64,000 bases of DNA from an uncultured bacterium (GTDB lineage Bacteria; Omnitrophota; Gorgyraeia; Zapsychrales; Aceulaceae): the NCBI GenBank assembly GCA_937930175.1, contig CALGLP010000022.1, positions 66,585-130,584 on the forward strand. The letters run 5' to 3'. Each line of letters opens with the position of its first letter. Positions within the stretch are counted from its first letter, which is position 1. Position numbers and translations under genes: made by a program. Under the pieces are notes generated by a model, which saw only the letters and a list, made by a program, of their open reading frames with translations, did not search any database and was not told where the DNA came from. Shown here piece by piece: positions 5,247 through 27,263 of the stretch.

Positions 5247-5285
5247 GATGTTTATTCATCAATCACTATAAAAAAGGGAGGGAAT

Positions 5286-5441: not shown

Positions 5442-5456
5442 TCGACAGCTTTTGCC

Positions 5457-6617: not shown

Positions 6618-6629
6618 ATGCCCTTGAAA

Positions 6630-7430: not shown

Positions 7431-7433
7431 GAT

Positions 7434-8510
7434 ATGAGTATTTCTTTAGGGGTTTTCTTAGGCGCTATCGTGGCCTTTGGCCTTTTTTTGGGCGTGGCGA
7501 TTTTTCTTCTCAAAGAAATTGTGCGTAAGGAAGTCCGTCAGGAATTCGAGTTTTCTAGGACGCAAATGCAGGAAAAGTCTGTGGCGGAGCTTGCGCGGCA
7601 AAAGGATGCGGTTCAGAATTCTGTCCAGAGCCTTAAACAAGACATTGAGCGCTACGGTCGGCTTGTTCATGATTTTGAAAAAGACCGTGATACCAAATAT
7701 GGCCATTTGGCTAATGAATTAAAAACAGCATCCCAGGCCACGAGCAAGTTGCAAGAAACAACCAGTCATTTGACGAGTATTCTTGCGAATGTCAAAAAGC
7801 GTGGCGAATGGGGCGAACGTATGGCGGAAGATATTATTCAGCTTTGCGGGCTTAAAGAAGGCATCAATTATCGTAAACAAAAGCAAGGGGAGGCCGGCTC
7901 GAAGCCGGATTATACCTTCCTTTTGCCCGATGACCATATCGTTAACATGGATGTGAAATTTCCTTTGAATAATTATCTCAATATGGTTAATGCGGCGGAA
8001 ATCGCGCAGAAGGATATGTTTTTAAAGCAATTCTCAGGGGATGTCCGTCGTCGTATCAAAGAAATCCAGAACCGGGATTATATTAGCCCGGCGGATGGTA
8101 CGCTCGATTTTGTTCTTTTGTTTATTCCTAATGAACAAGTTTTCGGTTTTATTCAAGAGACGGATGCGGGGGTCATGGATGAGGCTTTAAAGCAAAAGGT
8201 TGTCCTGTGCTCGCCGTTTACACTCTATGCGACTTTAAGCATTATTCGTCAGGCCTTTGATAATTTTCATTATGAAAAAGCGACTAAAGAGATCGTCAAA
8301 ACCATTGAGATGTTCTCGCGCACCTATGATATTTTTAAGGAGCGTTTTATGAAGCTTGAAGATACAATCAATATTGTCTCAGCGAAATATCATGAGATTC
8401 AAAGCACAAGCTTTAAAGAGCTTGATACAAAGATTCGCAAGATCCAAGATCTCAAAAAAGGGCAGGGGGTTAGCCTCCCTGAAGACAAGGACCTCTTGTC
8501 TTCAGGATAA
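7434..8510 (+). CDS. rmuC: DNA recombination protein RmuC
   Basis: N-terminal transmembrane helix, long coiled coil, then C-terminal RmuC core (GSKPDYTFLLPDDHIVNMDVKFPLNNY...DFVLLFIPNEQVF). Confidence 0.8.
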   Translation: MSISLGVFLGAIVAFGLFLGVAIFLLKEIVRKEVRQEFEFSRTQMQEKSVAELARQKDAVQNSVQSLKQDIERYGRLVHDFEKDRDTKYGHLANELKTASQATSKLQETTSHLTSILANVKKRGEWGERMAEDIIQLCGLKEGINYRKQKQGEAGSKPDYTFLLPDDHIVNMDVKFPLNNYLNMVNAAEIAQKDMFLKQFSGDVRRRIKEIQNRDYISPADGTLDFVLLFIPNEQVFGFIQETDAGVMDEALKQKVVLCSPFTLYATLSIIRQAFDNFHYEKATKEIVKTIEMFSRTYDIFKERFMKLEDTINIVSAKYHEIQSTSFKELDTKIRKIQDLKKGQGVSLPEDKDLLSSG

Positions 8511-8530
8511 GCTTTATCGGGAGTTAAGTG

Positions 8531-9265
8531 ATGTCACATAAAGAATATTTTAGAAATCATATTTTTGATTTTACGCCATTTCTAGGAAAAGAGATATTGG
8601 CGTTTACAACAGATGCGTCGATCGATTTTGCGCTTTCGAGTAGTGCGCCTTTTTTAAGCTTTGCGCAGCGAGATTTATTCAAGGATCAGTCACAGTCTTC
8701 GTGGTCTAAGGTTTTTAATATTCGTCAAGTTCATGGGAATAAAATCGTTATTGCCACAGCCAAACTTTATAAAGAGAGTAACGCGATCGTTCAAGCGGAT
8801 GGAATTGTCACCCAAGATGCGGATGTGCCCATTGCGGTTCGTACCGCGGATTGCCTCCCGGTTTTTATGTATGATCCTAAACAAAAAGTGGTTGCGATCA
8901 CGCATGCCGGATGGCGATCGACACACAAGAGGATTGTGGAAGGGACCTTAAAGAAAATGAAAAGCAAGTTTAAAACCAGGCCTCAGGATGTCAAGATTGC
9001 CTTTGGTCCAGGCTTGCGTTCGTGTTGTTATGTGGTGACAGACGAATTCCTCAAATATTTTCCGCAAGAGACCAAACGCCAAGGGGATCATTTGGTGTTT
9101 GATCTGGCCTTGGCTAACCGGCGTCAACTTTTGTCCGCAGGCGTTCTTGCGCGTAATATCTTTGACGCAAAAATGTGCACGTTTTGCACGCAGAAATGCT
9201 ATTCTCACCGACGAGACCAAGAGCGCGCAGGCCGCATGCTGTCTGTTATCATGCTCAAGGGCTAA
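8531..9265 (+). CDS. pgeF: YfiH/PgeF family (DUF152) purine-nucleoside phosphorylase / peptidoglycan editing factor
   Basis: Conserved motifs QVHGNKIV, ADGIVTQDADVPIAVRTADCLPV, AITHAGWRS and GPGLRSCCYVV (Cys/His metal ligands of YfiH). The ORF track begins at GTG 8528. Confidence 0.85.
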   Translation: MSHKEYFRNHIFDFTPFLGKEILAFTTDASIDFALSSSAPFLSFAQRDLFKDQSQSSWSKVFNIRQVHGNKIVIATAKLYKESNAIVQADGIVTQDADVPIAVRTADCLPVFMYDPKQKVVAITHAGWRSTHKRIVEGTLKKMKSKFKTRPQDVKIAFGPGLRSCCYVVTDEFLKYFPQETKRQGDHLVFDLALANRRQLLSAGVLARNIFDAKMCTFCTQKCYSHRRDQERAGRMLSVIMLKG

Positions 9266-9341
9266 AGAAAATACGAAATCATCTTGTCAAAGCTTAACTT
9301 TAAGCTAAAATAACCCAAACGTTCAAGGGAGATTTCTTAAC

Positions 9342-9659
9342 ATGAATATGATTGTTTTGGTCACAGCCCAAAATAGTTCCCAGGCCAAAAGAATAGGCCA
9401 AGCCCTCCTGGAAGCTCATGTGATTGCCTGTGTCAACATTGTCCCCGGTGTCCAGTCACTTTTTTGGTGGCAGGGGAAAGTCGATTCGTCCAAAGAAGTT
9501 CTTATGGTCATGAAAACACAGAAACGGTGTTTTAATAAAATTGTAACGATTGTTAAGCGTCTTCATAGCTATCAAACGCCCGAGATTGTTGCGTTGCCGA
9601 TTGTCCTTGGCGAGCGAGCGTATATGCAGTGGCTAGAGGCATCGTGTTCATCCCGCTAG
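9342..9659 (+). CDS. cutA: Divalent-cation tolerance protein CutA
   Basis: ~105 aa; VIACVNIVPGVQSLFWWQGKVDSSKEVLMVMKT...YQTPEIVALPIV is the CutA1 signature. Confidence 0.85.
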   Translation: MNMIVLVTAQNSSQAKRIGQALLEAHVIACVNIVPGVQSLFWWQGKVDSSKEVLMVMKTQKRCFNKIVTIVKRLHSYQTPEIVALPIVLGERAYMQWLEASCSSR

Positions 9660-9777
9660 GGGACTGTTCTGGAAAAGTCTTTTGCTTTTGGGCGTGGCGC
9701 GACAAACTAAATTTTACCGTTAGAGTTAGCCATTGGTGGAGTCGGTTTTCTAACGAGGCAAGGGAAAGGGTTTAAAC

Positions 9778-10290
9778 ATGAAGATTGTTGGACGGGTTGT
9801 TTTGATTGTGCTTGTTTTTTTGTTTGTGTTTGGGCTTTCACGAAGCCGCGCTCAGCTATTTACCTTTGGCGGCAGTCCTTTAGAGGGAAAGTCCGCGCCT
9901 GATTTTACATTATCAACGTTGACCAAGGGGCCTACGACCTTAAGCGCTTACCGCGGTAATCAGGCTGCGATTATTTTTTTCTGGGCCACGTGGTGTCCGC
10001 ATTGCCGCACAGCGCTGGAAGACCTTAATGCCCGCGCCCAAGAAATTCAAAGCCAAGGAATTAAAATCATTGTTGTTGATGTGGGAGAGTCTAAGGTTCA
10101 AGTACAAAACTATATTGATGAGCGTAACGTGACTTTGGATGTTTTTCTTGATGAAGAGTCGTTGGTTTCAAGCGATTATGCGGTCGTTGGCGTTCCAACC
10201 TTTGTTTTGATTGATAAAGAGGGAATGGTTAAGAGCGTTAAGCATGCCCTATCAGATGATTATCAGAAACTTCTTGATACAAGTAATTAA
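9778..10290 (+). CDS. TlpA/ResA-like periplasmic thiol-disulfide oxidoreductase (thioredoxin fold)
   Basis: Signal peptide/anchor followed by a WATWCPHC (CxxC) active site and the thioredoxin-fold motif VVGVPTFVLID. Confidence 0.85.
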   Translation: MKIVGRVVLIVLVFLFVFGLSRSRAQLFTFGGSPLEGKSAPDFTLSTLTKGPTTLSAYRGNQAAIIFFWATWCPHCRTALEDLNARAQEIQSQGIKIIVVDVGESKVQVQNYIDERNVTLDVFLDEESLVSSDYAVVGVPTFVLIDKEGMVKSVKHALSDDYQKLLDTSN

Positions 10291-11780
10291 TTCGCCATCG
10301 ATTCTTGTTGCGATCTGGTGATATTGTCAACGAGCTTTGCTTTTTGGCGAAGCCCTGCTAAAAAGTTGGTAAATGCTTGTTCGCGTAGCTTTGCGATCAA
10401 GCGATCCTTAAGAACAGCTTTTTCCTTTTCAAATTTCTCCTTGTCAGCTTCGAGGAACGCCCCTAAATACAGAAGCACAACCCCATTATTGATGTCCACA
10501 GGAGCGCTTAAGGGATTTTCTTGGGTCAAGCTAAAGGCGGCTTGATGAAATTGCGCTGAGGGTCCTACCTTGGGCAAATATTGCGCGCGATTAAACTCTG
10601 GCGTCTTTTCGATTTTTAGGTTCATCTTTTTGGCAATGGCTTCCAAGTCTTCCGTTGGATTTTTGATAAGCTCTTGATGGATTTGTTCGCGGGTTTGTTT
10701 GGCTTTTTCCTGCGCAAGTTTTTTAGACTCGGCCTGCACAACCGCGGCGCGCACTCTTTCCTGGGCTTCGTCAAAACTTAAAAGACGTTCCTCTTGGGTT
10801 TCTTTAAGGGATAAAACATAAAAACCTTTTGATGGGCTCGAGACGATTTCTAATTTACCCTTTTTAAGGCTTAAGGCTTTTTGGAAAACTTCAAGCGGCC
10901 ATCCAAGGCTCAGATTCGGGGCATCAATGCTAAAAAATCCACTTTCCTTGACGGGTAGTTTAAATTTCTCAGAAAGTTGCTTGAGATCAAAGGTGTTGGT
11001 TTCAATCGCTTTTGTTATTTCTTGTGCGGTTGACAATAAGGTGTCGTTTTTTTCTTGGGAAGAATCGCTTGGGTATTCTAGCGCAAGATAGCTAATGTTG
11101 ATCATCGGGGGGAGGCGAAACATCCCTTGGTTTTGGTCATAATAGGCGCGAAGGCTTTCTTCAGAGGCAACCACATCCTTGGCCTGTTCCGCAAAAGGAA
11201 AAAGAACATAATCGATCTGGACTTTCTCGTTTTCTGTCTGATAGGCCTTCAAGACTTGTTCATCGGTGGCGTCAACCGCGAGCGTTTCTTGGTTGTAAAT
11301 CTTTTCAAAGATGAGGGATTCGCGGATACCTTCTTCAAAATCACGCGGCGTGCAGCGAAAGACATATTGCGTGATTTGATCGTAGAGTTGTTTATCAAAG
11401 GTGCCATTTCGCTGGAAAAACGAAAACTTTTTGACCGCCGCAACGACTTCGGCATTGGAGACAGTGATTTTTCTTTTTTTCGCTTCAGCAAGTAAGATTA
11501 GCCGATCCCAGGTTTCGCTTTCAAGGTTAAGTTGGCTTTCGATTTTATTGAAGTTTTCTCCATAACGCAAGATCGCTTGGATTCTGACATGTTGTAAGGC
11601 GTCTTCAAAGTCTCTGAGTGAAACCGTGCGGCCGAAAATCTTGCCTGCAAAGGACGCTGTCTTTTGATCGCGCGTGAGTGATGTTTGAATGCCAAAAAAG
11701 ACAAAGGACACTGTGATCATGACAGCCAAAATCCAAAGGATTTTCTTAGCAACACCTTTTTTTCTTAAAATTCTAAGCAT
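10287..11780 (-). CDS. PpiD/SurA-like periplasmic chaperone (membrane-anchored, PPIase-associated); the only minus-strand gene
   Basis: N-terminal transmembrane helix ILWILAVMITVSFVFFGI, SurA-N-like domain, ~500 aa; AGGAGG ribosome-binding site before ATG at 11780. Its stop overlaps the convergent tlpA-like stop (TTAA at 10287-10290). Confidence 0.65.
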   Translation of the reverse strand: MLRILRKKGVAKKILWILAVMITVSFVFFGIQTSLTRDQKTASFAGKIFGRTVSLRDFEDALQHVRIQAILRYGENFNKIESQLNLESETWDRLILLAEAKKRKITVSNAEVVAAVKKFSFFQRNGTFDKQLYDQITQYVFRCTPRDFEEGIRESLIFEKIYNQETLAVDATDEQVLKAYQTENEKVQIDYVLFPFAEQAKDVVASEESLRAYYDQNQGMFRLPPMINISYLALEYPSDSSQEKNDTLLSTAQEITKAIETNTFDLKQLSEKFKLPVKESGFFSIDAPNLSLGWPLEVFQKALSLKKGKLEIVSSPSKGFYVLSLKETQEERLLSFDEAQERVRAAVVQAESKKLAQEKAKQTREQIHQELIKNPTEDLEAIAKKMNLKIEKTPEFNRAQYLPKVGPSAQFHQAAFSLTQENPLSAPVDINNGVVLLYLGAFLEADKEKFEKEKAVLKDRLIAKLREQAFTNFLAGLRQKAKLVDNITRSQQESMAN

Positions 11781-12050
11781 GGACCCTCCTGAAAGTTTAT
11801 TCGTTGTGTGAAATTTAAATGATTATAACGACAAAATTTTCAGTTGGCAAGCTCCGTTAGCAATATCATGAGTGCTTCGGTTTTCCTTAATTCGGGATCA
11901 GCGCAAACCGATACGTCCTATTTTTATCTGAATTCGGCATGAGGGAGAATTGGGGCGTGATGCGTTGTTTCTGGCAGGCCCAGGGTTTTCGGGCAAACCT
12001 GTAAAACACATGCTATACTTTCCACTAACTCAACCTTTTTATATAAATAT

Positions 12051-15000
12051 ATGTTTTATTTATTGCAAAAACGATTTAAGACCTTTTTAAAGACTACAAG
12101 CTTAATCTTAGCTTTTGTCTTTGCGCAGGGGGTCTTTTTGCCTTTTCCAGCTTATGCCCAGGCTGTTTTTCCTCAAGCAGGACAGATCATTTCTTTAAGC
12201 TCTGCATTTACACCTACGATTGTTCGTGGAATCCGCATTTATCCTGATAATCCTTTAAAATTTGACTTTATTGTTGACGGTGGGGACGCTGACTTAAAAG
12301 GGGATGAGTTAAAGAGCGAAAGCGAAAAACTTATCCGCTACTTCCTGGCAAGTCTTACTCTTCCAGAGAATGATCTCTGGGTCAACCTTTCTCCCTATGA
12401 AAAAGACCGCATCGTTCCAGCAGAGCTTGGGACTACCGAGATGGGTATTGATATGCTTGCCCAAGACTATCTCTTAAAGCAAATAACTGCCTCTTTAACC
12501 AATCCTGATAGTGATCTTGGTAAAGAATTCTGGCAAAAGATTTACAAGCAATCCTATGAGAAATTCGGGACAACGAACGTTCCTGTCGACACCTTTAACA
12601 AGGTCTGGATCATGCCCGATAAGGCTGAAGTCTACGTTCAAGAGGATAAGGCCTTTGTCGTTGAATCGCGATTAAAAGTGATGCTGGAAAGTGATTATTT
12701 AGCAAGAGAGAAAAGTAAAGAAGATAGAAGGGAGAAGATAGAAGATGGAAAAAACAACGACAAGACAACAGCGAATAAAAGTCCTGATTCCCTAGATTCT
12801 AAGACTTTTCCATCTTCCATTGTCCATTCTCCATCTTCTGATATCTCTTCTAGTATTGTGCGTGAGGTCTTCATCCCTGTCCTTGAGAAAGAGGTGAATG
12901 AAGGCAAGAACTTTGCCCAGCTAAGGCAGATCTACAATAGCATTATCTTAAGCTACTGGTATAAGACCAATCTCAAGAACTCCATTCTTAATAAGGTGTA
13001 CGCGGATAAAAGAAAGGTTAAAGGACTAGAAGTCGTGAATAGTGAAAAGTATCTAGTATCTAGCCAAAAAAGCAATGAAGAGTCGTTAGAAAATGGCGAA
13101 GAAAAGCACCAGATACCAGATACTAGATACCCTTCACAGGTTCAAAGTAATTCTTTGCCAGATACTATTCACTCTTCACCAGATACTGTTCAGATTATCT
13201 ACCAACAATACCTCCAAACTTTTAAAAAAGGCGTCTGCAACATGATGAAGGTGGAGTATGACCCTTACACCAAAAAGAACATCCCCCGAAAATACTTTGC
13301 GGGAGGGGTGGTGTGGGATGTTGCACCAATTCTAGGCTATTTCTCAACGATCATCGGGCCTATGCCGCAGTGGGTTTTAACGTCCACGCTCGAAGATCCT
13401 TTGATGATGATCGAGTTTAATTCTGTGCCTGTAACAGAAGAGGTCTTCAACTCCGAAAAAGTTCGTGCGCAGGGGGTTGCGCAGGGAAGTTCTGAGCCCA
13501 TAACGATCAGCAGTAGCCTGAGGCCGTTATCCGATGAAACAAAAGCGCAGCTCGGCAAGCTTTTAAATGAATATGTGAAATGGGGTGGGACCACGGTGGT
13601 TGGAAAAACAGGTTTTTTTGCTTTTCTCAAAGCAAAATGGGGATGCGACGATCAAGTGCTTTCAGAGATCTTGGGCGTTAAGAGGAAATTTGCGAAATCT
13701 CTTGTCGAGGCGCGACAGGCGGGAGGGATTAGCGTTAGAAATATTTATGCATTTGTAGAAAGGTTTGGGTTTACGGGTAATGACGAGACAATTTTTTTTG
13801 GTCTTGCAAAACCTAAAAAAGATGTAAAGTTTTTGTCAGAGAATATGTTTAATTTGTTTGTTGAGATTAAGGTCGCAATGCCAAAGGTATTGTATCTTGG
13901 CATACCTGATAATTCCCCTAAAGAAGATCAAGGTTTTTTTGTGCCCAATCCAAATGGGTCGGGGGACACCTATGTTCCGCTGATAAGAAGAGTTTCCTTC
14001 GCCTCGTCAAATATTACAGGAGAGAATGATCTTCCTTTGAGCCCGCTCACGGGAAAACCGGATCTGCGTTCCCGCAAAGGTGATCCGGACACCTTAGAGC
14101 AGAAGATGGACGCATTAAAAAAAGCTATTCAAGGCGGTTATCCCTACGGGATTCGTTATGGCGTAAATAGACTTTTAGCAGCGGCGATTAATTCTCAAGC
14201 GAATCCCAGTCAAAGAATTCAGGCCTTAGAGTTTCTTGCTCAGCTACAGCTTCCTCAGAAGTTTATTGATCAGTTTTTATTCGAGAAATCCAAAGGCGAC
14301 AAAGAGCGCTGGTTGGCACAGGTGGCTGGGGATCGAGAAGCTAACCCTCGCCTGCGGGAGCTATGCATCCAGGTTCTGGCAGTTTTATCGCAACAGCTTG
14401 GTAGTCGCTGGAACTATGACCTGCTGGAGGAAGTTATCACTCGGGATAAGAAAAGGGATATCTCGGGGCTTCCGCTTGCTTCTACAGGCAAGCCCAACTT
14501 GCATCATCGCACAGGCCCTCACAGTACTCTTCGCCAGCTGATTGCTGATTTGCCGAGGCCTGGAAAAACTCCTGGAGGGATCCGCCATACCGTGAATGGT
14601 CTCTTGAGCATCGCGATCAATACAGAAAATTCTTCAGATAGGATCCTGGCTCTTCAAACGATTGCAGAATTAAAAATTGATCAAAAATATATCGATCAAT
14701 TTTTATTTGAGAAATCTAAAGGCGACAAAGAGCGCTGGCTGGTTGAGGTGGCAGAAGATCTGCAGGCTGAGCCGCATCTGAGGGCATTAAGTATCCAAAC
14801 CTTGTGGGTGCTGGCTCGGCAGTTCGGCAGTCCTTGGGCGTATAATTTGCTTGAAGATCTTGCTCATCCTAAAGCCGCGGGAGCGAACGCTCCCCAGGAA
14901 GTACAAGAGGCCTTGGATAGCTACGCAGGATATCTTAATTTTATTACAGATGCGGATTTGGTAATGACAGACCGTATTTTACCATCGGCACTCATTTATC

Positions 15001-18000
15001 ATATTTTTGGTGAGAACATTATTGAAATGTTTATGGCCTGGGGCAAGGTTGTAGATCCGCAACTTCCAGCTGCTGCTCGCCAAGAGAATGTGCAGCGCTT
15101 GATTGCTATTGCAAGGGGTGAGGGGGTGGAATATCAAGGCACGGATTTTCAAGCCGAAGCGCATAGCATATTGCTGCAGATGTCCACGACCACAAAGAGA
15201 GCTCTGCATCCAAAATTCCGGTACATGGCCCAGAAGTATATCGACAAAGCTCCGCCTAAGCCTTTGATGACCATATTGCGAAATCCTGATCCCAAGAAAC
15301 AAGAGACCTCTTCAAGCCTTGTTCAAAAACTTCAGGCAGAGCTTGAGGCATTCAAGGAAGTTGATTTTTCTGCACAAGCCCAAGAGTTAAAGAGCCACTA
15401 TAAAAGTTTTCTTCCCCGCAAGCGGCCAGAAGACCGTAAAAAACTTCAACAGGAGATCGAGAGTTTTTTGGGAGCGCTCAGGGATCTTCTTTCACAACAT
15501 CCGTTGCTCGCACGTTCAATGCGCTTGGCCCGCTATGATGTTTTAGGACGCGTTCAGAGGGTTTCCGATTGGCTGTCGTCGCATGCGCCATCCCCACCGG
15601 CATCCACCAGGGATCGTCTTAGCCTGGAAGCGGATCTGAACAAAGCGATCCGGATTTTGTCGATTCTGCAAAATAGTGCCTATGGACTCATGGATCTTAA
15701 GGTCTTGCCTCAACCCGGTCAAGAGAAGATTTTTTATTTAGAGGTATTTAGCGATGCGGTGATCCTTGCGAGCCTTGAAAACCAGAAAGACTGGAAGCCT
15801 GAGTATAAAGCGTGCTTCAGGGAGTTTCAAAAGATCATTGGTTCGGAAGCTGTTGTTGAAGCCTTTGCCTTGGGGCGCCGGGATTATGCTGTTTGTCTTT
15901 TGCAGATCCTGATTTCGTGGCAGGATTATCGACGAATCATGGAGGATCTGATTGAGCGGATCCCTGCAGAGAGCCTTGGTCGCGCCTTTGTCCGGGACAC
16001 ACAATCATTCTTGGGGGCTGTGCGGAAAATGGATCTGGCCATCAAAGAAAGCGGTGAGGCGATTTATGTGGACCGCTATCCGTTGACGATCGACCGCTTT
16101 CTTCAAAGATTTCCCGACCTTGCTTCAGTCTTTGGTGAGAGTTGTGGACAGAATTTCGGTTCTTTTGTTAACAGCATCGAAACACTTGCCGAGCGCGAAT
16201 CCCGCGATAAGCATCTTGAGGCGCATCTGGACGCCTTGGAGAGATTGTTTGTGCGAGTCTTTCCCCAGGTAAAAGACCGGCAACGCGCTGTCCGCGAACA
16301 TTTTCTGAATCTCGTTAATTTATCGCGTCAGGCTGTCCGCAGTGATCAGGCGTTCTGGGGTCTTGTGGAGTTGATCGGCGCTGATGCGCTCAGAGAAGAT
16401 TTCTTCTCTGACGACAATCGAGTGCTCGAACACCTGAATATTATCCTGCCAGCATGGTCCGGACTTGTTTCGGCGTTATCTGATCCTTCGCGTGATCTTG
16501 CCAAGCCGACAATAGCGTTCTTAGCCGCCTGGGTTGAGAACGCAAAAATGCCCGTTTCCAACGGGAAAAAGGTCTCCTCAAGCTCTCTGGAGAGTATTTT
16601 ACGAGATGAATTATCAGCATTCAGGGCTACGGATCTGGCTGTGCGTGCCAAGAGACTTAAAGCGCGCTATCAAAAAATGGCCAAAAAGATAGAGGGCAAA
16701 GAATATCCGGATGCAAAAGAAGCTGTACTTATTGAGAAATACGGAAAGAAACTTTTAAAGGATATGAGGACCTTTTTTAAGGACAAAACTCTTTTGTGTT
16801 CGACTGTTGAGCAGGCTGCGATCTTGCCAGAGTTGGCAGTCTTTAATCCCATGACTGATTTTCTTGCTGGTTTTTTACAGGTTAAGATCAAGATGAAATC
16901 GCCTCAGGATGTAATCGCCGTGCAGCGTGGAGCCATCGTGCAAGTGGAAAAGGTCTTAAGCGCGCTTCAAAATGGCCATTATGCCCAAGAAAATATCAAA
17001 GAGACGAAAGCTAAGTCTACCGGGGAAATTATTCAATATGTTGATCTTTTTGGGTTGGGGATGCGCGGGAAGAAGATGAACAGTTTTGTTGTGGAGAAAT
17101 CAGGCTTTAAGAAGTTCTCTGAGGGTTTTCAAATAAAGCCTGAGTTGATTTCTTTGCTCCAGGGCCTTCGCCATCTGCACGAAGAGAATCCAGGCTTGTA
17201 TTTGGAATTAGAAAAAGCCGCGCTTGATCCGGCGTATCAAATCCCTGAAACGATGCAAAATTCCGCGCATGCTCAGACCGTCGGTCTTTTTGATAAAGAT
17301 GGCGCAATGAAGCCCTTAGCTCGGATAACTCTTGTGGAAACTTTTAATGGGCCCGAGATGAGAAAACAATGGGCCGAAAATATCCGCATCCGGGAAACCG
17401 GCCAGGTTACGATTAGTTTTGATCGAAATGGCAAGGTCTTATCCGTAAGCCAGGGGGATATGGGTCAAAAAAGGCCAGCAAGCATCGGCAACGAGTATGT
17501 TCTTCTTAATGTTGATGTCACGAGTCGCGGTAACGAGCTTTATCTCGTAGAGAGTTCTTTTAAGTCTTTGCCGTATGTGGTAAGGAGAAGCTTGATGTGG
17601 CTTGCGTCAGGAGGCTTGTGGATCCGCGAGGATATTCCTTGTGACCTTGACCCAGAGACTGCCGCCTTAAGCCCCGAAAGGATCAGGGAAACGTTTTTGC
17701 ACCAGCCTAAGCCGAAAAGCTTGTCTGCGTATTTTGTTTCTCAGAAGGAAGCGATCCGCCGGGCCTATGCCGCCTACCTTGAGGACAAGAAACCCAAAAC
17801 AGCCAAAGATTTTGCCACCTTCGAGGAGCTGTACGCGCATGTAAACGCTGTATTGTTCTATGAAGGCATGTATTTTGAGCGAAGAGGGTTGGAATATTTT
17901 GAGGAATATTTCCATGAGGTGTCGGCCCAGATTAAAGAATTTGAGGATCTTTTTAGCGGGAATATCGATCTGGAGAAATTGTCCGCTTTTGAACTTTTCA

Positions 18001-21000
18001 TGAAGACGCTGGGTTTGGCTGATCTTAAAAGCCGGAGTGACCGCTATTATTATCAGGCGCGAGACTATTATTCCCGGATCCTTTATGGCAAACATTTCTG
18101 GGAAATGTATGCCGATCAAAAAGAAAGCTTAAGCGAGGCCCAGAAAAGCATCGTCCGGATCTCGATCGATTTCTTTCCGGGCCGCTACGATGAGGAGTGG
18201 GATGCTTGGCAGCAAAGATTTCAGGCCGAGCTCAATAGAAGAAAAACGCAAGGTCCGAAGTTTGCCCTAGAGGTCATTGCGGGCCTAAAATCTAAGGGCA
18301 TCAATCTGCAAGAGTTTGGGATGAGCCGGTTGATCGATCAAGTGCTGGGCTTAGGGGGCGAACGTTTGGCTCCTTCCGTTTACGCGGATGAACAATCTGT
18401 GCAGGATGGGACGGATTATTATCTCACTGACCAGATTCTGGAACGGCTTGACCTTAAGGCCTCGGATGTGTTCTATGATCTTGGCTCAGGACACGGGAGG
18501 GTTATTTTCTGGACGGCGTTTTCTACTGCGATCGGCAAAGCGGTCGGCATTGAATATGTTTCTGAATGGGCCAATCGTGCTAGCGACTTGGCTCTTAAGC
18601 ATAATATCTCGGATAGGGCGGTCTTTATTAATTCCAAGGTCCAGAATGTTGACTTCAGCGATGGCACGGTTTTCTTTCTTTATAATCCTTTCCAGGCTTC
18701 TACCCTTGCGCGCGTCACGGAAAAACTGCAGGCGATCGCCCGCCAGAAGAAAATCCGCGTGATTAGTGTAGGGGGTTGCAATGAACATTTCCTTTTACAA
18801 GGGACTTGGCTTAAAGTTGCGGAGATGATCAAAGGTAGCAGGGATGAGAGCGCTATCATTTTTGAGTCGACCATCGACTCCCCATCGGCGGCCGCGGGCC
18901 CTGCGGGCGATCAGCCGTCGGTGGGGAATCTGCCTCCTGATGTAAAGAATGCTATGTATTTCATCTTAGACTCAGATGGCGTTATTCTAAGGATCCCCGA
19001 GATTGATAAAGAACATGTTGCTTTTGTGTACGCTATGATGAAAAAGGAGATCACCGACCCTCAAGGGTTTGTTCCCAGCGAAGTGGATATGCAAGAAGGT
19101 CGTCAATTCAAAGAAAAGTATCCTGGCCACACAACCAAGGTAATCTTAAGGGAACTTTTAACTTCGTCCTTTGCTGACCGATTTAAAGGATTGGATACTG
19201 AAGAGCTTGTTTCGAAATTTGATCAAATTTATCGAGACCGAAAAAATGCTGAGGTTGATGAGATACTAAATCTTCCCCTGGAAGAAGCTGAAAAAAGATT
19301 GCTTATGCCCGGGGTTAAGAAATTTTTACAAGACAAGGTTAATCAAGGGGCTGTCTTGCGGGTCCTTTCTGGCGGGAGAGAAAGCGAAAAGCGGCGTATT
19401 TTTGAAAAACTTGGATTGATGGGTTTTTTTCAGGATGTCCAATTCGCAGGTACTAGAGAGAAGAAAATCGAAATCTTTGAAGACATGATCGCCAATATTG
19501 ACCATAAGGAGAATATTGTTATCGTGGATGATTCTCTTGAGAATATTGATGAGTATAGAAATGTCATCAGCCAGGGTCAAAAGCGTTCCGGGAAGTCTTT
19601 TCTTATCGGCTTGGCGAACAAAGAGCAAGAGGATCGCATGAAGCCGCACGCGGATTATGTGATTGAGGACTTAAGCGGCTTGGTAGCATCGTCGGCTAGT
19701 AAACTTGGTGATGAGGGGAAGGCGGGGGAGGGAAGCGCCGCCTCGACAAAAAATCTCAAGCGCATTGAAAATGTCCATGATTGGTTGGTCACTCCTGAGC
19801 GTGTTAAGGAAGTGACTCGTCGGGCTGTGGCCTTGGGGTGGAAAGAAGTTAGCAAGAAAACAGCGGATGATATACTTGATAAATTGAGAACTTACGGAAA
19901 TCGATATCCTTTAGATAAATATTCAACAGAGCGCGATCCTGGCAAAACCGTCATGATCAATTGGTGCGTCGATCAAGCTGTGAGGAAGCAGAGGGATCTT
20001 TTTTTTACGCAGGAAGGGTTGATATTCTTGGTCGCGGATCTTATGGATAAAAGTAAGGATTTGGCCAGGAGATTTCTGATTGACCTGGGAAATCTTGATG
20101 ATGCAAAGTTTAATAAAATACTTGAAAACGAGCTAAGGCCTAAGGCCATGAGCCATAGTAATTTCGCACCTGAGCGCATTGACGCCGTTGTTCATTGGCT
20201 GGCGCGTCCGGATAAAGAGTTTTTTCCAGTGAAGAAGAAAATGATTGATTCGCTCCTCAAGGCAGGGATGGAAGAGCTAGCCCAGATTTCTTATAAAAGC
20301 TTATATCTGCCTGACCGCCAATTAGGAGAGATTCAGCTTAATGATGACCAATACTGGATATTGTCCCAAATGAATTTTAAGGTTCTTCTTTTAGATTTGA
20401 TTTATCAAGATCCGGTTGCAGCCCAAGCACTGCTTGATCCCTTACTAGCGTCGATGGATAGCGAAAAAGAGATACTTAGCGCAAAATCGTATATCAATTT
20501 TGGAATTAAACAGATCGCAGGGATCCAGGGCGTGGTTGAGGAATATGTGCGGGATTATTTTGTTACTGTCGATGGATCAGCAAAAGAGACGTCTTCTTAT
20601 TCTGTCAGGATTGCGGGTATCATGCGTTCCTATATTCTGGAAGCATGGGAGAAATTGGCGGAGGATCATCTTGATGTTAGTACCACTGCTTATACGAAGA
20701 AAAAGAATCTTGTTGTTAATCTCTCGGGGGAAGATCTGGAGAGGTGTATTACGGCTATCAATACTTTCTTGAGAATGCATTTTGAAGATAAGTTGTTTAG
20801 TTTTTCCCTTGACGAAGGAGACCTTAGTATTTCGGTTTTAGATCAGCTAGAGGAGGATGCTGGCAGCAATCCTCAAGCTCAAGAGCTCCGTGATCTTGGA
20901 ATTCCTCCCGATGTTGGTGCGCAGGCTAAGGAAAAGGAAGGCATCTTCAGCCCTGTGGGCGAACAGCCGTCGGCGGGGGGAAAGGCTGTGCATTTGGAGG

Positions 21001-23612
21001 ACCGCGCTGTCCTTCAGGGCGATCTGCCGATTTCAGATGCCGAACGGGCGTCTTTGACTTTCATCAGGACAGTGCTAGAACGGGAAAGATGGCCAAAACG
21101 TAATGATATTTTTCTTCGGGATGCTGGAACTATCTTCGAGGGCCTGCTTCAAGGTGCCGCTGCTGTTTTATTTAAAAGGCTGTTGGTTGAGTTGCTTGGT
21201 AATGCATGGGACTATGGCGCTATAGATTCGCCAGACAGGAGTGTGCCCTGGGTTGTGGATCTTTATCAAAATGCTCAGAGTCAATATTTTTTAAAAGTAA
21301 TGATTTTCCAAGACCATATTTCGAAAGATGACTTGATGAGCCTGTTGTCGCATCAAGGTCTTTCTGCAAGGGATATTCTACAAGAGCAAAGCGTGATCGG
21401 GAAGGGCCTGGCTAAAAAAGGGCACGGGGCTTTTGAATCTTTCGCGCTTTTATCCAAAAAGGGCATTCCTTTGACATTAGAGTATTCCAGGGAGGGCAAG
21501 GGGTTAAAGACGGTTTTATGGGCCGGGATTTCTTCTCAAGCAGGCCAGGCGAAAGGACAACCTACCTTGGGATACGGCCAAGACTATTTGCAGACCACCA
21601 AGACGCAGGCAGGCTTGCCTAATCCAAACGAGCAGGGCGATCAGCTGCAAGCGGGGAAGGGAAGCAGTGCCAGCCCCATATTTCAGAAGACGCACAAAGC
21701 TGATCTTTATCAAAAAGCTAAAAAACTTTTAGATGAGATCTTCCCCCAGATACTCGAGGATTTTACCAAAGACCCGGGCAAGAAAGGATTTGAGGGGCCT
21801 GATGGTCTGATCGCCTTTATACGTCAAGAATTGGAAAAAAGGCTTGGGGAAAAGCTTTCAGATCCTCTCCTTGGTCAATTGCTGGGATTTGATAGCAAAA
21901 CTCTACGCGCAAAACTCAATAGCGTCGAAGGTTTGAGCCCTCTTCAAGACATCAAGATTCAAAAGCTTGTTGATCGGTATCCTTCCTTAAAAGATGAGGA
22001 AGCACGTCTGCGGGCCATTAATCAGGAAGTTTCTTTTGAGCAGGCTAAGATGGTGCTCAAGAGAATATTTAAGACAGCCCTTCGAGAATATGTTGAAGTC
22101 AAAGAAGGAACGACGTTCTGGGGTCCTGAGGGTTTCGCTCTGTTCTTGAAAAAGAAACTTGAATCAGAACTTGGTGTCAAGGAGATAACAAAGGGATTTT
22201 TTGGGAATCTACTTGGTTTTAGTGCGAATCGCTTAGAAGAACGGGGTGCCCAAAGCCTTTTGCCTAAAAACCAAGCCCAGCTTATGGATGAGCACGATTT
22301 GGATGATGTCGAACGAGAATATTTATCTGAGATTTGTGGCGGGAAAGAAATAGAAGTAGTCTTTCAACCTGAACCTGATTTTCCGAGAGTGGCCAGGCGG
22401 ACCTTGAAAGCATATCGGAAACAAGGGGGCACAAGGCTTTCAGGTAGCGACGGGTATTTTCGTTATCTTTTTGATAGAGTCGGCATGAAGGGCGTTAAAA
22501 AGATAGGTTATGATTTTAACGGGGCAGTAAGTAAACAAGCCGTTTGGTCATGGCTATCCGGCCACACCCCTTCAAAGGTGTTGCTGGAAAAAGTCGTTTA
22601 TGAGGCCTTCGCGACACTTACCCCGCTATTCAAAAAGTCAATGTTAAAAAGCTTGCTCGAGCTTCGCACAATGGAGATCGAAGCCGCCAAAAGCGCTATG
22701 CCACATTCCGAGCACACGGACGAAATTGAGGGTTCTTCTGATCCGGCGGGGGAGAGGGCGGATTTGGCAAACAAAGCAAGCAAAGACGAACGCTTTATTT
22801 TTACTGACATTATCGCAGAGGGCTGGATAGTTAATACCCAGTATTACAACAAGATCGTTGAATATGCTAATCAACGACTTAAGTATTTATTAAGCCAGAC
22901 TGAAAATGCTCAGAAACTTGAAGGGATTTATTTGGAAATCAGGAAAAAGGCGAAGAGTAAAAATTTGGTACTTGATATTAAGATTGATAAAAATCAAAAA
23001 GAAGATATTGGGGTGGTTGTGTTGACGCCGCAAATGGAGAATTTAGATCTTCAGGCGAGTAATATTGATATCGATGACACAGATTTTAAACACAGGCGAT
23101 TAGGAAGAAGTATTTATATTGCAGTGAACGATGCGCTTGGTTTTTATGGGCAAGGGGTTATTACAAGCAAGGGATTTTTTCTAGAAAGCAAGGGCATCTC
23201 ACCAGGAAAGAATTTATGGGAAAGTCTTGTTCGCGATGGATATGCTGAAAAGATTCTGGGAGCTGGTTACAGAATGCTTTCTTCCAGCAAAAGTCCAGAT
23301 GGTGTTGCTCCTTCGTCTTCGTTTGGGAATAATACACCAGAAGGGAAGAAATTGGGAGGGATTGATTTTAACGCCAAGAATATGAACGTTACGGCCACAG
23401 GTTCATCGTCTGTCGATTTTACCTTGCCTGAGGGCATCACGGCAGAGGGCCTGATGAACGCTCAAGGATTTGTGCCTGTTATTATTAGTATCACCCCGGT
23501 TGCGAATATCTGGACCTTGATGGGCCTCAATCGAGAGGACGCGCAAGAACTACAGCGTGTTCAAGGCCTGGGGGAGGCCATGGAGCCGGAAAAGATAAGT
23601 TTGGCAAGGTAG
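12051..23612 (+). CDS. Giant secreted multidomain protein (3853 aa): signal peptide; low-complexity S/E/K-rich region; HEAT-like repeats with a 142-aa tandem duplication; DOT1-like SAM methyltransferase domain; HAD-like hydrolase domain; GHKL (histidine-kinase/Hsp90-type) ATPase-like domain; C-terminal repeated ~95-aa modules
   Basis: Single uninterrupted ORF. Signal peptide MFYLL...FPAYAQA. Motifs DLGSGHG...GIE...VFFLYNPF (class I methyltransferase); ILDSDGVI...IVIVDDSLENI (HAD motifs I and III/IV); LLVELLGNAWDYGA (HATPase N-box). Confidence 0.85.
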   Translation: MFYLLQKRFKTFLKTTSLILAFVFAQGVFLPFPAYAQAVFPQAGQIISLSSAFTPTIVRGIRIYPDNPLKFDFIVDGGDADLKGDELKSESEKLIRYFLASLTLPENDLWVNLSPYEKDRIVPAELGTTEMGIDMLAQDYLLKQITASLTNPDSDLGKEFWQKIYKQSYEKFGTTNVPVDTFNKVWIMPDKAEVYVQEDKAFVVESRLKVMLESDYLAREKSKEDRREKIEDGKNNDKTTANKSPDSLDSKTFPSSIVHSPSSDISSSIVREVFIPVLEKEVNEGKNFAQLRQIYNSIILSYWYKTNLKNSILNKVYADKRKVKGLEVVNSEKYLVSSQKSNEESLENGEEKHQIPDTRYPSQVQSNSLPDTIHSSPDTVQIIYQQYLQTFKKGVCNMMKVEYDPYTKKNIPRKYFAGGVVWDVAPILGYFSTIIGPMPQWVLTSTLEDPLMMIEFNSVPVTEEVFNSEKVRAQGVAQGSSEPITISSSLRPLSDETKAQLGKLLNEYVKWGGTTVVGKTGFFAFLKAKWGCDDQVLSEILGVKRKFAKSLVEARQAGGISVRNIYAFVERFGFTGNDETIFFGLAKPKKDVKFLSENMFNLFVEIKVAMPKVLYLGIPDNSPKEDQGFFVPNPNGSGDTYVPLIRRVSFASSNITGENDLPLSPLTGKPDLRSRKGDPDTLEQKMDALKKAIQGGYPYGIRYGVNRLLAAAINSQANPSQRIQALEFLAQLQLPQKFIDQFLFEKSKGDKERWLAQVAGDREANPRLRELCIQVLAVLSQQLGSRWNYDLLEEVITRDKKRDISGLPLASTGKPNLHHRTGPHSTLRQLIADLPRPGKTPGGIRHTVNGLLSIAINTENSSDRILALQTIAELKIDQKYIDQFLFEKSKGDKERWLVEVAEDLQAEPHLRALSIQTLWVLARQFGSPWAYNLLEDLAHPKAAGANAPQEVQEALDSYAGYLNFITDADLVMTDRILPSALIYHIFGENIIEMFMAWGKVVDPQLPAAARQENVQRLIAIARGEGVEYQGTDFQAEAHSILLQMSTTTKRALHPKFRYMAQKYIDKAPPKPLMTILRNPDPKKQETSSSLVQKLQAELEAFKEVDFSAQAQELKSHYKSFLPRKRPEDRKKLQQEIESFLGALRDLLSQHPLLARSMRLARYDVLGRVQRVSDWLSSHAPSPPASTRDRLSLEADLNKAIRILSILQNSAYGLMDLKVLPQPGQEKIFYLEVFSDAVILASLENQKDWKPEYKACFREFQKIIGSEAVVEAFALGRRDYAVCLLQILISWQDYRRIMEDLIERIPAESLGRAFVRDTQSFLGAVRKMDLAIKESGEAIYVDRYPLTIDRFLQRFPDLASVFGESCGQNFGSFVNSIETLAERESRDKHLEAHLDALERLFVRVFPQVKDRQRAVREHFLNLVNLSRQAVRSDQAFWGLVELIGADALREDFFSDDNRVLEHLNIILPAWSGLVSALSDPSRDLAKPTIAFLAAWVENAKMPVSNGKKVSSSSLESILRDELSAFRATDLAVRAKRLKARYQKMAKKIEGKEYPDAKEAVLIEKYGKKLLKDMRTFFKDKTLLCSTVEQAAILPELAVFNPMTDFLAGFLQVKIKMKSPQDVIAVQRGAIVQVEKVLSALQNGHYAQENIKETKAKSTGEIIQYVDLFGLGMRGKKMNSFVVEKSGFKKFSEGFQIKPELISLLQGLRHLHEENPGLYLELEKAALDPAYQIPETMQNSAHAQTVGLFDKDGAMKPLARITLVETFNGPEMRKQWAENIRIRETGQVTISFDRNGKVLSVSQGDMGQKRPASIGNEYVLLNVDVTSRGNELYLVESSFKSLPYVVRRSLMWLASGGLWIREDIPCDLDPETAALSPERIRETFLHQPKPKSLSAYFVSQKEAIRRAYAAYLEDKKPKTAKDFATFEELYAHVNAVLFYEGMYFERRGLEYFEEYFHEVSAQIKEFEDLFSGNIDLEKLSAFELFMKTLGLADLKSRSDRYYYQARDYYSRILYGKHFWEMYADQKESLSEAQKSIVRISIDFFPGRYDEEWDAWQQRFQAELNRRKTQGPKFALEVIAGLKSKGINLQEFGMSRLIDQVLGLGGERLAPSVYADEQSVQDGTDYYLTDQILERLDLKASDVFYDLGSGHGRVIFWTAFSTAIGKAVGIEYVSEWANRASDLALKHNISDRAVFINSKVQNVDFSDGTVFFLYNPFQASTLARVTEKLQAIARQKKIRVISVGGCNEHFLLQGTWLKVAEMIKGSRDESAIIFESTIDSPSAAAGPAGDQPSVGNLPPDVKNAMYFILDSDGVILRIPEIDKEHVAFVYAMMKKEITDPQGFVPSEVDMQEGRQFKEKYPGHTTKVILRELLTSSFADRFKGLDTEELVSKFDQIYRDRKNAEVDEILNLPLEEAEKRLLMPGVKKFLQDKVNQGAVLRVLSGGRESEKRRIFEKLGLMGFFQDVQFAGTREKKIEIFEDMIANIDHKENIVIVDDSLENIDEYRNVISQGQKRSGKSFLIGLANKEQEDRMKPHADYVIEDLSGLVASSASKLGDEGKAGEGSAASTKNLKRIENVHDWLVTPERVKEVTRRAVALGWKEVSKKTADDILDKLRTYGNRYPLDKYSTERDPGKTVMINWCVDQAVRKQRDLFFTQEGLIFLVADLMDKSKDLARRFLIDLGNLDDAKFNKILENELRPKAMSHSNFAPERIDAVVHWLARPDKEFFPVKKKMIDSLLKAGMEELAQISYKSLYLPDRQLGEIQLNDDQYWILSQMNFKVLLLDLIYQDPVAAQALLDPLLASMDSEKEILSAKSYINFGIKQIAGIQGVVEEYVRDYFVTVDGSAKETSSYSVRIAGIMRSYILEAWEKLAEDHLDVSTTAYTKKKNLVVNLSGEDLERCITAINTFLRMHFEDKLFSFSLDEGDLSISVLDQLEEDAGSNPQAQELRDLGIPPDVGAQAKEKEGIFSPVGEQPSAGGKAVHLEDRAVLQGDLPISDAERASLTFIRTVLERERWPKRNDIFLRDAGTIFEGLLQGAAAVLFKRLLVELLGNAWDYGAIDSPDRSVPWVVDLYQNAQSQYFLKVMIFQDHISKDDLMSLLSHQGLSARDILQEQSVIGKGLAKKGHGAFESFALLSKKGIPLTLEYSREGKGLKTVLWAGISSQAGQAKGQPTLGYGQDYLQTTKTQAGLPNPNEQGDQLQAGKGSSASPIFQKTHKADLYQKAKKLLDEIFPQILEDFTKDPGKKGFEGPDGLIAFIRQELEKRLGEKLSDPLLGQLLGFDSKTLRAKLNSVEGLSPLQDIKIQKLVDRYPSLKDEEARLRAINQEVSFEQAKMVLKRIFKTALREYVEVKEGTTFWGPEGFALFLKKKLESELGVKEITKGFFGNLLGFSANRLEERGAQSLLPKNQAQLMDEHDLDDVEREYLSEICGGKEIEVVFQPEPDFPRVARRTLKAYRKQGGTRLSGSDGYFRYLFDRVGMKGVKKIGYDFNGAVSKQAVWSWLSGHTPSKVLLEKVVYEAFATLTPLFKKSMLKSLLELRTMEIEAAKSAMPHSEHTDEIEGSSDPAGERADLANKASKDERFIFTDIIAEGWIVNTQYYNKIVEYANQRLKYLLSQTENAQKLEGIYLEIRKKAKSKNLVLDIKIDKNQKEDIGVVVLTPQMENLDLQASNIDIDDTDFKHRRLGRSIYIAVNDALGFYGQGVITSKGFFLESKGISPGKNLWESLVRDGYAEKILGAGYRMLSSSKSPDGVAPSSSFGNNTPEGKKLGGIDFNAKNMNVTATGSSSVDFTLPEGITAEGLMNAQGFVPVIISITPVANIWTLMGLNREDAQELQRVQGLGEAMEPEKISLAR
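14040..14891. repeat. In-frame tandem duplication (2 x ~426 nt) inside the giant gene, encoding two HEAT-like 142-aa units (..IDQFLFEKSKGDKERWL..)
   Basis: TTTTTATT(C/T)GAGAAATC(C/T)AAAGGCGACAAAGAGCGCTGG occurs at 14274 and 14700 (period 426 nt); the protein units are ~60% identical. Confidence 0.8.
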
Positions 23613-23841
23613 TTTTTTTCTTGATCGATAGGATTGCCTTCTTCTTCTCAAAAGAGCCCAATCAGCCTTGCTTGAGCTTGTCTGGGTTTTTTCCGGAACG
23701 CTCGCTCCGCCCCTGTCACTCCAAACTTTTCTCGATTCTCGGCTTCGCTCTCCCTAGCGGGAGCCGTGCCCGCTCATCCTCGAAACGTCCGTCAAAAGCC
23801 CAGCCAAGCTCTTTTAACGGGTGGATTTAGAAAGGCGCGTT

Positions 23842-23940
23842 GGCATTGTCCTCTCGCGAGTTTTGCAGGCTTCAAGTTTCCTTGAATTTTAAATTTAGAT
23901 AAAGTTGGGGCCGAAGGATGTCTGAGCGAAGGACAATACC
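23842..23940. repeat. Copy 2 of the paralogous hairpin element (GGCATTGTCC ... GGACAATACC ends), homologous to 6630-6744
   Basis: Colinear alignment with copy 1; shared blocks TTGTCCT..GCGAG.T.TGCAGGC.TCA and GGCCGAAG..TGT.TGAGCGAAGG.CAA.AC. Confidence 0.5.
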
Positions 23941-24122
23941 GGCACGCCTATAAGCAACAGTATCGCCTGAGTAATTTTTGCTCAAATTATCTAAGTGCTC
24001 CTGCAAGGAGAAGACAATCTCTGCGCTTTCCCTTTACAACCAATTTCCCTAAATGTATAATGCGTTTTCTTAATTTTCTGTTATAATGAAAAAAATTATT
24101 AATAATCATGGGGATAAAAGTG

Positions 24123-27245: not shown

Positions 27246-27263
27246 ATGAAGGAGGAAGCAGCT

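Follow-up and report, generated by a model that had tools for sequence, protein, structure and literature searches.

Omnitrophota are widespread, uncultivated and ultra-small bacteria, presumed to be epibionts or predators of other microbes. Giant genes have been documented in this phylum (Seymour et al., 2023; PMC10066038), and two further reports describe what such genes encode. The 'Archaeovorins' of West-Roberts et al. (2023; 10.1101/2023.11.21.568195) combine HEAT_2, HATPase_c and HAD_2 domains with a 5BXY-like methyltransferase fold, a Rotamase_2 peptidyl-prolyl isomerase (PPIase) is found among the conserved neighbours of the giant genes, and some of the predicted extracellular localizations are called 'highly unlikely' by the authors themselves. 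The 'multi-enzyme / Module 1' proteins of Nielsen and Lui (2026; 10.64898/2026.06.07.730766) show co-occurring methyltransferase, HATPase_c, GNAT, HAD and HD domains, and a cytoplasmic reading is favoured there for giants that have these Pfam modules and transmembrane (TM) segments only. Extracellular or host-directed roles have been proposed for the giants, and a predatory or episymbiotic lifestyle for the phylum. Here we analyse a gene for a 3853-amino-acid (aa) protein, hereafter the giant, in a 64,000-nucleotide (nt) stretch of an uncultured Omnitrophota bacterium of the Aceulaceae (assembly GCA_937930175.1, contig CALGLP010000022.1, positions 66,585 to 130,584), which we call the window and whose first letter is position 1 in all coordinates below.

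The published Omnitrophota giants resemble this protein in their phylum, in a 5BXY-type methyltransferase (the top PDB match here), in HAD_2, HEAT and signal-peptide features, in a length that is mostly unannotatable and poorly conserved in sequence, in a nearby Rotamase_2 PPIase and in the paradox, discussed in both reports, that enzymes of cytoplasmic type occur in proteins predicted to be exported. They differ in size and domains: their catalogues start at 10,000 aa or above 30,000 aa (the latter for Archaeovorins), so that 3853 aa falls below both thresholds, and the present protein lacks the numerous TM helices and the SecA_DEAD domain of Archaeovorins and has no C39 match. In the Archaeovorin locus, type II secretion system (T2SS)/type IV pilus-like genes and a Rotamase_2 PPIase precede the giant gene and pilZ follows it; here the Rotamase_2 gene is present, no T2SS gene was found in the 12 kb upstream (no gsp or pil in positions 1–12000) and hisG follows downstream. 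The original prediction, made from the letters of the window, had not recognized the domain combination as a known family and had likened the protein to the 'giant genes' of some uncultivated, host-associated lineages; the lineage is indeed of that kind, being Omnitrophota, while the repertoire had already been published for giants of this phylum. The giant is thus a long member of the already documented Omnitrophota multi-enzyme giant proteins, and what is apparently undescribed is the family of bracketing ends to which it belongs.

A family defined by its two ends

The giant carries a conserved head (N-domain) directly behind its signal peptide and a conserved tail (C-module) at its very end (Table 1). 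We consider it very likely that head and tail together define a very large, Omnitrophota-specific family, here called the bracket family, and that the giant belongs to it by membership and by architecture. The N-terminal 460 aa, used as a query, retrieved 1668 database proteins at E ≤ 1e-3, nearly all named ones being Candidatus Omnitrophota, and among the 120 matches listed E values ranged from 7e-156 to 2e-101 with identities of 41–71%. The N-domain, about 380 aa long, starts with a conserved Gln and contains the motifs WVNLSPYE (here at nt 12378–12401), DYLLKQ, FNKVWI.P and EKEVNEGKNF; 111 of the 120 best matches carry its end motif, [R/K]xYF[S/A]GG, which occupies aa 413–419 of the giant, and the giant also retains all of the about 56–57 invariant columns. 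A single spacer rich in S, E, K and D had been proposed within this region; the low complexity is real, and it is divided between two loops that lie inside the conserved domain as variable insertions.

The N-domain has no Pfam, NCBIfam or PDB-sequence match, the PDB sequences having been searched with a family profile. An AlphaFold2 model of P0069, a short complete member of 564 aa modelled from a 45-sequence alignment, reached a predicted local distance difference test score (pLDDT) above 90 over most of the N-domain (about aa 40–290) and showed a mixed alpha/beta domain with three beta-hairpins and long helices, for which a Foldseek search against the PDB gave a best E value of 0.11.

The C-module spans about 65–85 aa across the family and consists of GGID[LF] and, 38–44 aa further on, PVIINIxP..LLG, followed by an acidic linker that leads to a closing hSxh motif. 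The spacing of 38–44 aa between GGID and PVII is kept in all 36 C-modules compared, with the giant inside the range, and 15 of the 22 longer tails show the terminal motif, where shuffled sequences gave a mean of 1.9. In the P0069 model, the pLDDT was 80–89 over the first half of the module. A word-index query with the last 170 aa of the giant returned just two matches, and the description of the module rests on genome loci; aa 3684–3853 gave no NCBIfam or Pfam match at E ≤ 10, sorting-signal models included. The C-terminal region had previously been taken to lack any recognizable motif, which no longer holds. Among complete N-domain open reading frames (ORFs), 44 of 62 terminate in a C-module, and conversely, of the 65 ORFs that end in a C-module, only about three, which are split or masked genes, do not start with an N-domain, so that the two ends are strictly coupled to each other.

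A scan of species-representative genomes (one genome per species) gave at least 598 pattern matches, of which at least 593 were confirmed, and the locus-level counts below rest on the best 80 of these confirmed loci. All 80 lie in metagenome-assembled genomes (MAGs) of Omnitrophota or in MAGs labelled 'Planctomycetales'. Many family-bearing MAGs (L001, L002, L004 and others) are titled 'uncultured Planctomycetales bacterium' in public records, and the bins concerned are probably Omnitrophota that were assigned to the wrong taxon. The family is multi-copy, with single genomes contributing three to five copies, and 12 of 79 loci hold tandem arrays of two to three N-domain genes. In L007, L017/L026, L033, L076 and eight further loci, N-domain genes stand head-to-tail on the same strand with differing cargo, an arrangement that suggests local duplication followed by cargo replacement. 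Complete members range from about 400 to 3523 aa (3333 and 3523 aa being among the longest), and seven members run off the fetched DNA at more than 3190 aa, some at more than 3700 aa; the giant is long for the bracket family and is not an outlier.

We found no description of the N-domain/C-module bracket in the accessible portions of the Omnitrophota giant-gene papers or in full-text searches that covered part of the journals.

Exchangeable cargo between the conserved ends

On sequence comparison, the region between the two ends is exchangeable cargo that is swapped wholesale even at one chromosomal locus. The gene order RmuC–CuOx4–AhpC–PpiD(−)–N-domain gene–HisG is common to L001 and Candidatus Aceula lacicola (L008) and is rearranged in L012; HisG is 80% identical at the syntenic locus of the L001/L008 type. 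The 1845-aa protein of L008 aligns with the giant at the N-domain and over the last ~90 aa, and elsewhere with a few short and weak matches (E ≥ 7e-5), and its cargo includes a different methyltransferase (Methyltransf_11). The nearest relative, from L001, matches aa 1–583 of the giant at 55% identity and nothing beyond. In L001 and L008 the PpiD-like gene directly adjoins that of the N-domain protein, and in L012 it lies nearby; this syntenic neighbour is possibly related.

Scanned with Pfam, the cargo regions of 38 complete members yielded 52 families. Complete housekeeping-type enzymes were found between head and tail (L051:3614-9226, L053:3172-9399 and L046:10001-16729), including full-length PGK (359.6 bits), PGI (662 bits) with PGM, and SNF2 helicases; further cargo families comprise protein kinase, PP2C, PPDK_N, HMGL-like, GDSL lipase, HEAT and several methyltransferases, and genuine HEAT_2 cargo is present in other family members.

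The middle of the giant was compared more widely through its aa 2050–3130. An exhaustive HMMER search returned 361 representatives at E ≤ 1e-10; those listed match almost exclusively in the DOT1-like unit, and eight of the long matches carry an N-domain, the giant's own database copy included; a word-index search with the same region had yielded 8000 candidates and none significant, which, given the later HMMER matches, is a limit of that method. P0122 (4783 aa) has a related HAD domain, a closely similar C-terminus, the PLPQWV stretch of the giant's post-N segment and a related module of the 109-aa type described below, and P0123 (2433 aa) combines a genuine HATPase_c domain with a pair of DOT1-like units. 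Across the entire aa 2050–3130 the identical public record P0121 was the sole match in the database, and no close cargo relatives were found in JGI metagenome contigs.

Cargo of the giant protein

Table 1. Features of the giant gene and of its divergent neighbour (window positions).
Feature	aa	Position (nt)	Strand	Basis or remark
PpiD/SurA-like periplasmic chaperone gene, divergent, directly upstream		10287..11780	−	Pfam (SurA_N_3 + Rotamase_2)
Sec-type signal peptide, MFYLLQKRFKTFLKTTSLILAFVFAQGVFLPFPAYA/QA (predicted)	1–36	12051..12158	+	Kyte–Doolittle maximum 1.81 over aa 12–36
Family N-domain, QAVFPQAGQIISLS to RKYFAGG	37–419	12159..13307	+	1668 family matches
Two low-complexity loops in N-domain	219–268, 328–381	12705–12854, 13032–13193	+	Variable insertions
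Post-N segment, common to nearest relatives only	420–600	13308..13850	+	Weak copy of ~109-aa helical module
Tandem duplication of a 142-aa helical module	661–795 / 807–937	14031..14861	+	55% identity, E 2e-39
Orphan region	938–1849	14862..17597	+	No Pfam match better than E 0.02
DOT1/aKMT-like SAM methyltransferase unit	Helical N-extension ~1850–2122, core 2123–2275	17598..18875	+	PF08123
HAD-superfamily hydrolase	2305–2504	18963..19562	+	PF00702 and catalytic motifs
Orphan region with N-box-like ELLGNAWDYG (nt 21186–21218)	2560–3221	19728..21713	+	No Pfam match at E ≤ 1
Three ~109-aa helical modules	A 3222–3330, B 3331–3440, C 3441–3550 (weak)	21714..22700	+	Smith–Waterman
Pre-C region, partly common to Aceula-clade relatives	3551–3768	22701..23354	+	Alignments to L003 and L004
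Family C-module: GGIDFNAKNM, ~38 aa, GFVPVIISITPVANIWTLMGL, acidic linker, terminal KISLAR	3769–3853	23355..23609	+	Family motif

Two of the enzymatic domains named in the original prediction can be recognized in the cargo of the giant. A DOT1-type class I S-adenosylmethionine (SAM) methyltransferase domain is confirmed by profile and motifs, its activity being predicted: PF08123 scores 33.3 bits, above its gathering threshold of 23, over aa 2123–2203, the alignment covering profile positions 28–106 of 205, and the structural relatives in the PDB are 5bxy (E 1e-6) and the crenarchaeal lysine methyltransferase aKMT (5fa8, E 4e-6; also 5jwj). Like DOT1 and aKMT, the domain has a class I Rossmann layout with DLGSGHG in motif I (VFYDLGSGHGRV, nt 18468–18503; YDLGSGHGR at aa 2142–2150), an acidic post-I GIEY (aa 2166–2169) and NPF (nt 18672–18692) at the position of the DOT1 'NNF'; unlike them, it is embedded in a 3.85-kAA protein predicted to be exported and has a conserved helical N-extension of ~270 aa, relatives among the 3085 Omnitrophota proteins and ORFs of a local database reaching back to aa ~1850. 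The NCBIfam aKMT equivalog model NF041081 gives 38.2 bits, below its cut-off of 200. The downstream HAD phosphatase domain is supported by intact motifs I (FILDSDGVIL, aa 2304–2313), II (RVLSGG, aa 2437–2442) and IV (VIVDDSLENI, aa 2490–2499) and by scores just below threshold for both PF00702 (24.9 bits versus 26.4) and HAD_2 (PF13419, 21.2 versus 23.8); it is 45% identical to aa 1555–1815 of P0122, which score 33.6 bits, above the cut-off.

The proposed GHKL (HATPase_c) ATPase is not supported. HATPase_c gave no Pfam match at E ≤ 1 with the whole protein or the isolated segment, while the positive control P0123 scores 37.4 bits, and a custom profile, made from the HATPase_c domains (14 in all) of Omnitrophota loci and related proteins and used unfiltered, produced no alignment to aa 3000–3150. 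An N-box-like ELLGNAWD is present at aa 3047–3054 and a G2 box only in part (GKGLAKKGHG), and the G1 position reads FQDHISKDD, without the DxGxG glycines. An effectively single-sequence AlphaFold2 model of the segment had a pLDDT of 35–60 and found nothing in the PDB by Foldseek at E ≤ 0.001. Neither the two profiles, the G1 position nor the low-confidence model with its fold search lends support to the ATPase.

Much of the remaining cargo is repetitive or orphan. HEAT-like repeats with an exact duplication had been claimed near the head, and the duplication is real, including an exact 17-aa repeat, IDQFLFEKSKGDKERWL, at aa 739 and 881 and a DNA repeat (D1, 14236–14371 and 14662–14797) that is 72% identical at a spacing of 426 nt; the HEAT assignment stays below threshold, with HEAT_2 matching copy 2 only (17.8 bits versus a cut-off of 27.7, E 0.004), and the 142-aa module is possibly HEAT-like. 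Two to three copies of a ~95-aa module were also expected further downstream. The period is 109 aa, and modules A and B are clearly related (Smith–Waterman score 95 versus a shuffle null of 28.6 ± 5.3, z = 12.4), the third copy being weak (B versus C, z = 3.2); AlphaFold2 confidently predicts A and B as small helical domains, with a pLDDT of 86–95 for A and 75–84 for B. A further weak copy is seen in the post-N segment, whose aa ~488–600 align with modules B and C at z = 4.9 and which also gave a faint Xre-like helix-turn-helix match (E 0.19). In the first orphan region no phmmer match was found in the 3085-sequence database, and there is a weak internal repeat between aa 1083–1118 and 1506–1541 (42% identity, E 6e-4). 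The pre-C region has no Pfam match; aa 3687–3844 align to L003 (30% identity, E 6e-15) and aa 3728–3827 to L004. Altogether, about 60% of the protein (aa ~600–1850, 2560–3220 and 3440–3700) is without a relative in Pfam or in the local database.

Linkers rich in P, G and Q (PAGDQPSVG, PVGEQPSAG and GDQLQAGKG) are encoded by near-identical DNA at 18898–18926, 20950–20978 and 21635–21658, with 90% identity over 29 nt at a spacing of 2052 nt. They lie at domain boundaries, namely behind the methyltransferase and on either side of the 'GHKL-like' segment, and may be module junctions.

Signal peptide, topology and gene start

The predicted signal peptide has an n-region with four K/R, a hydrophobic core at aa 12–36 and AYA at positions −3 to −1 of an AYA/QA site, and the family members inspected in alignments share this layout, ending in a nearly invariant AQ. 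In a Kyte–Doolittle scan (19-aa window, threshold ≥1.6) the second hydrophobic segment was aa 3806–3826 (1.67), inside the conserved C-terminal motif, and no other internal TM-grade segment was found in the giant, so that the expectation of a signal peptide without a later TM segment stands with this one proviso. An N-terminal hydrophobic segment is present in 38 of 40 family members. A TM helix behind the N-domain, by which the cargo would re-enter the cytoplasm, was considered and rejected, a TM-like segment at this place being seen in 8 of the 40 members only.

A second signal-peptide-like segment was observed directly behind the N-domain in P0042 (aa ~400–430), P0069 (aa ~355–385) and P0001, that of P0042 resembling a twin-arginine signal (GRREFLKAAVIATASALV). 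In these three proteins the N-domain appears to have been joined to the front of an exported gene that was already complete.

The public gene call P0121 (3824 aa) is the same sequence begun at an internal TTG, codon 30 (window position 12138). With this start the signal peptide is lost, so that an automated pipeline would class the protein as non-secreted. Exact-sequence queries, made for both starts, returned no record.

Location of the cargo and alternative explanations

We give a probability of roughly 0.5 to the reading that the giant is an exported carrier of the bracket family whose exchangeable cargo acts outside the cytoplasm of the producer, the proposed export and site of action included. 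Sec would translocate the protein, with the adjacent PpiD-like chaperone as a possible helper, and the signal peptide would be cleaved before the conserved Gln. Both ends are under family-wide selection, and N-domain and C-module would most likely be the handles of a common machinery for export, anchoring or delivery. The cargo would then act on the cell surface or within a host or prey cell to which the producer is attached, SAM for the methyltransferase being available only in a host cell. Since SAM and ATP are not supplied in the periplasm or medium, delivery onto or into a host or prey cell would be the most coherent form of this reading, and it would agree with the predatory or episymbiotic lifestyle proposed for the phylum. 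That N-domain and C-module constitute a new phylum-specific system of export/delivery or surface tethering, carrying dozens of cytoplasmic-type enzymes into or onto hosts, with the giant as one effector of several payloads, is a tentative extension that we consider rather less probable than its opposite.

Several observations weigh against an exported carrier. Export is predicted by sequence rules only. Clustering of 649 flanking ORFs revealed no conserved neighbour or dedicated transporter, just scattered response regulators, and the PVIINI part of the C-module is of low confidence in the P0069 model. It is awkward that PGK, PGI, PGM, SNF2, kinases and SAM methyltransferases are classically cytoplasmic, so that their proposed location needs a delivery step, and PGK and PGI would be odd effectors.

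The cytoplasmic type of this ATP- and SAM-dependent cargo would be explained by a membrane-tethered enzyme scaffold on the cytoplasmic side, anchored by the N-terminal segment and perhaps by the hydrophobic stretch of the C-module, with the cargo serving the cell's own metabolism or regulation. Nielsen and Lui (2026) favour such an arrangement for TM-only giants, and West-Roberts et al. (2023) doubt some extracellular predictions. The positively charged n-region (by the positive-inside rule) and the AxA/Q site nevertheless predict an N-in/C-out orientation or cleavage, either of which places the downstream chain outside; a further TM-like segment behind the N-domain, which could bring it back, is missing in 32 of 40 members; and the strongly conserved N-domain would require a periplasmic or cytoplasmic partner. 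We regard the scaffold, which is the main rival, as unlikely. A resident of the periplasm or envelope that is not delivered to another cell, working on the cell's own envelope or on imported substrates and tethered by its ends to the inner or outer membrane or to peptidoglycan, would fit a signal peptide without a recognizable secretion-system partner, the housekeeping neighbourhood with its conserved adjoining PpiD-like periplasmic chaperone, and the fact that HAD phosphatases can operate in the periplasm. It is made about as unlikely as the scaffold by SAM/ATP-dependent cargo and SNF2, which have no known periplasmic cofactor supply or DNA substrate, and by the wholesale cargo swaps between close relatives, which are more typical of proteins that face other organisms.

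An artefact, in the form of an assembly chimera or of fused or decaying genes, would account for a cargo that is seen in one assembly only (the sole full match to aa 2050–3130 being the identical P0121) and for the large fraction of its length that lacks detectable homologues, including close ones in the JGI contigs. Against this stand an uninterrupted frame of 3853 sense codons, set beside off-frame ORFs of at most 230 aa, a family head and tail in one frame as in the 44 complete relatives counted above, uniform GC and codon usage, and relatives of comparable length (3333, 3523 and more than 3700 aa). Such an origin is highly improbable in our judgement.

Comparison with conserved-end secretion systems

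The bracket family invites comparison with two systems in which a conserved end accompanies a variable cargo. Polymorphic toxins such as MafB, CdiA and Rhs likewise join a conserved trafficking end to a hypervariable, recombining payload, with many paralogues per genome, tandem arrays and payloads that differ between close relatives at one locus (Zhang et al., 2012; PMC3482391). They differ in that their variable toxin domain is C-terminal and has a cognate immunity gene behind it, whereas the bracket family is conserved at both ends with a variable middle and carries multi-domain payloads with metabolic enzymes rather than nucleases or deaminases; moreover, hisG and no immunity-like gene lies downstream of the giant gene, and no toxin or known trafficking domain was detected. 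A PADLOC search gave only a weak match, in the methyltransferase region.

Cargo proteins of the Bacteroidota type IX secretion system (T9SS) resemble the bracket family in a Sec signal peptide, variable cargo and a conserved C-terminal element of ~60–90 aa that recurs in many proteins otherwise unrelated, the C-terminal domain (CTD). The conserved Gln after the cleavage site also recalls the Bacteroidetes 'Q-rule'. Unlike T9SS cargo, the bracket family has no NCBIfam or Pfam sorting-domain match and has an additional, obligatory 380-aa N-domain, and the C-module, unlike the CTD, is not predicted by AlphaFold2 as a compact beta-sandwich.

Reading frame, composition and genomic setting

The gene at 12051..23612 on the forward strand is, as originally read, one uninterrupted ORF with an ATG start in the ORF scan of the window, where the second-longest ORF encodes 826 aa. 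Its GC content is 0.455 and its third-position GC content (GC3) 0.464, compared with 0.443 and 0.441 for the remaining 44 genes; all 1200-nt segments lie inside the range of those genes, and the codon-usage distance never exceeded the null maximum. A compositional mosaic or recent transfer, of which the former had been raised on the basis of spot samples, is not supported. A phage or mobile-element origin was likewise rejected, with just three matches among 2.9 million viral contigs, two of the three at a contig end. The leader is AT-rich and has no Shine–Dalgarno sequence, as noted before, and this proved to be ordinary, a Shine–Dalgarno-like tetramer being missing in 15 of 34 ATG-start genes of the window.

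The spacer between the giant gene and hisG is unusually long at 495 nt (23613–24107), that of the syntenic L008 being only ~155 nt. A long imperfect hairpin was observed in it at ~23832–23950, with arms of approximately GGCGCGTTGGCATTGTCCTCTCGC and GCGAAGGACAATACCGGCACGCC, and the surrounding region of 348 nt has a fold z-score of −2.1. The hairpin had been described as paralogous; the element itself is present, whereas no second copy of its arm was found in the window at ≤3 mismatches, and an Rfam scan of the window, which matched a tRNA-Gln alone, left the hairpin without a match.

The neighbours of the giant gene are housekeeping genes, namely RmuC, a Cu-oxidase_4 protein, an AhpC-like redoxin and the PpiD/SurA-like chaperone upstream and HisG downstream. 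Genes for BamA, Skp, LpxD, LpxC-FabZ, LpxA and LpxI occur further along the window and mark the organism as diderm. In a SpoVG homologue at 27246–27713, a zinc ribbon (Zn_Ribbon_1 / DZR, aa 60–85) is inserted within the SpoVG domain, which is an unusual arrangement.

Implications for Omnitrophota biology

The combination of signal peptide, head and tail provides a searchable mark for hundreds to thousands of proteins and thereby a handle on the puzzle of giant genes. Should head and tail serve as signals for export or delivery, the family would represent the effector repertoire of the phylum, and its secretion route could be traced through the partners of head and tail. If, on the other hand, the cargo stays inside the cell, the rules by which signal peptides and topology are predicted would fail systematically for Omnitrophota.

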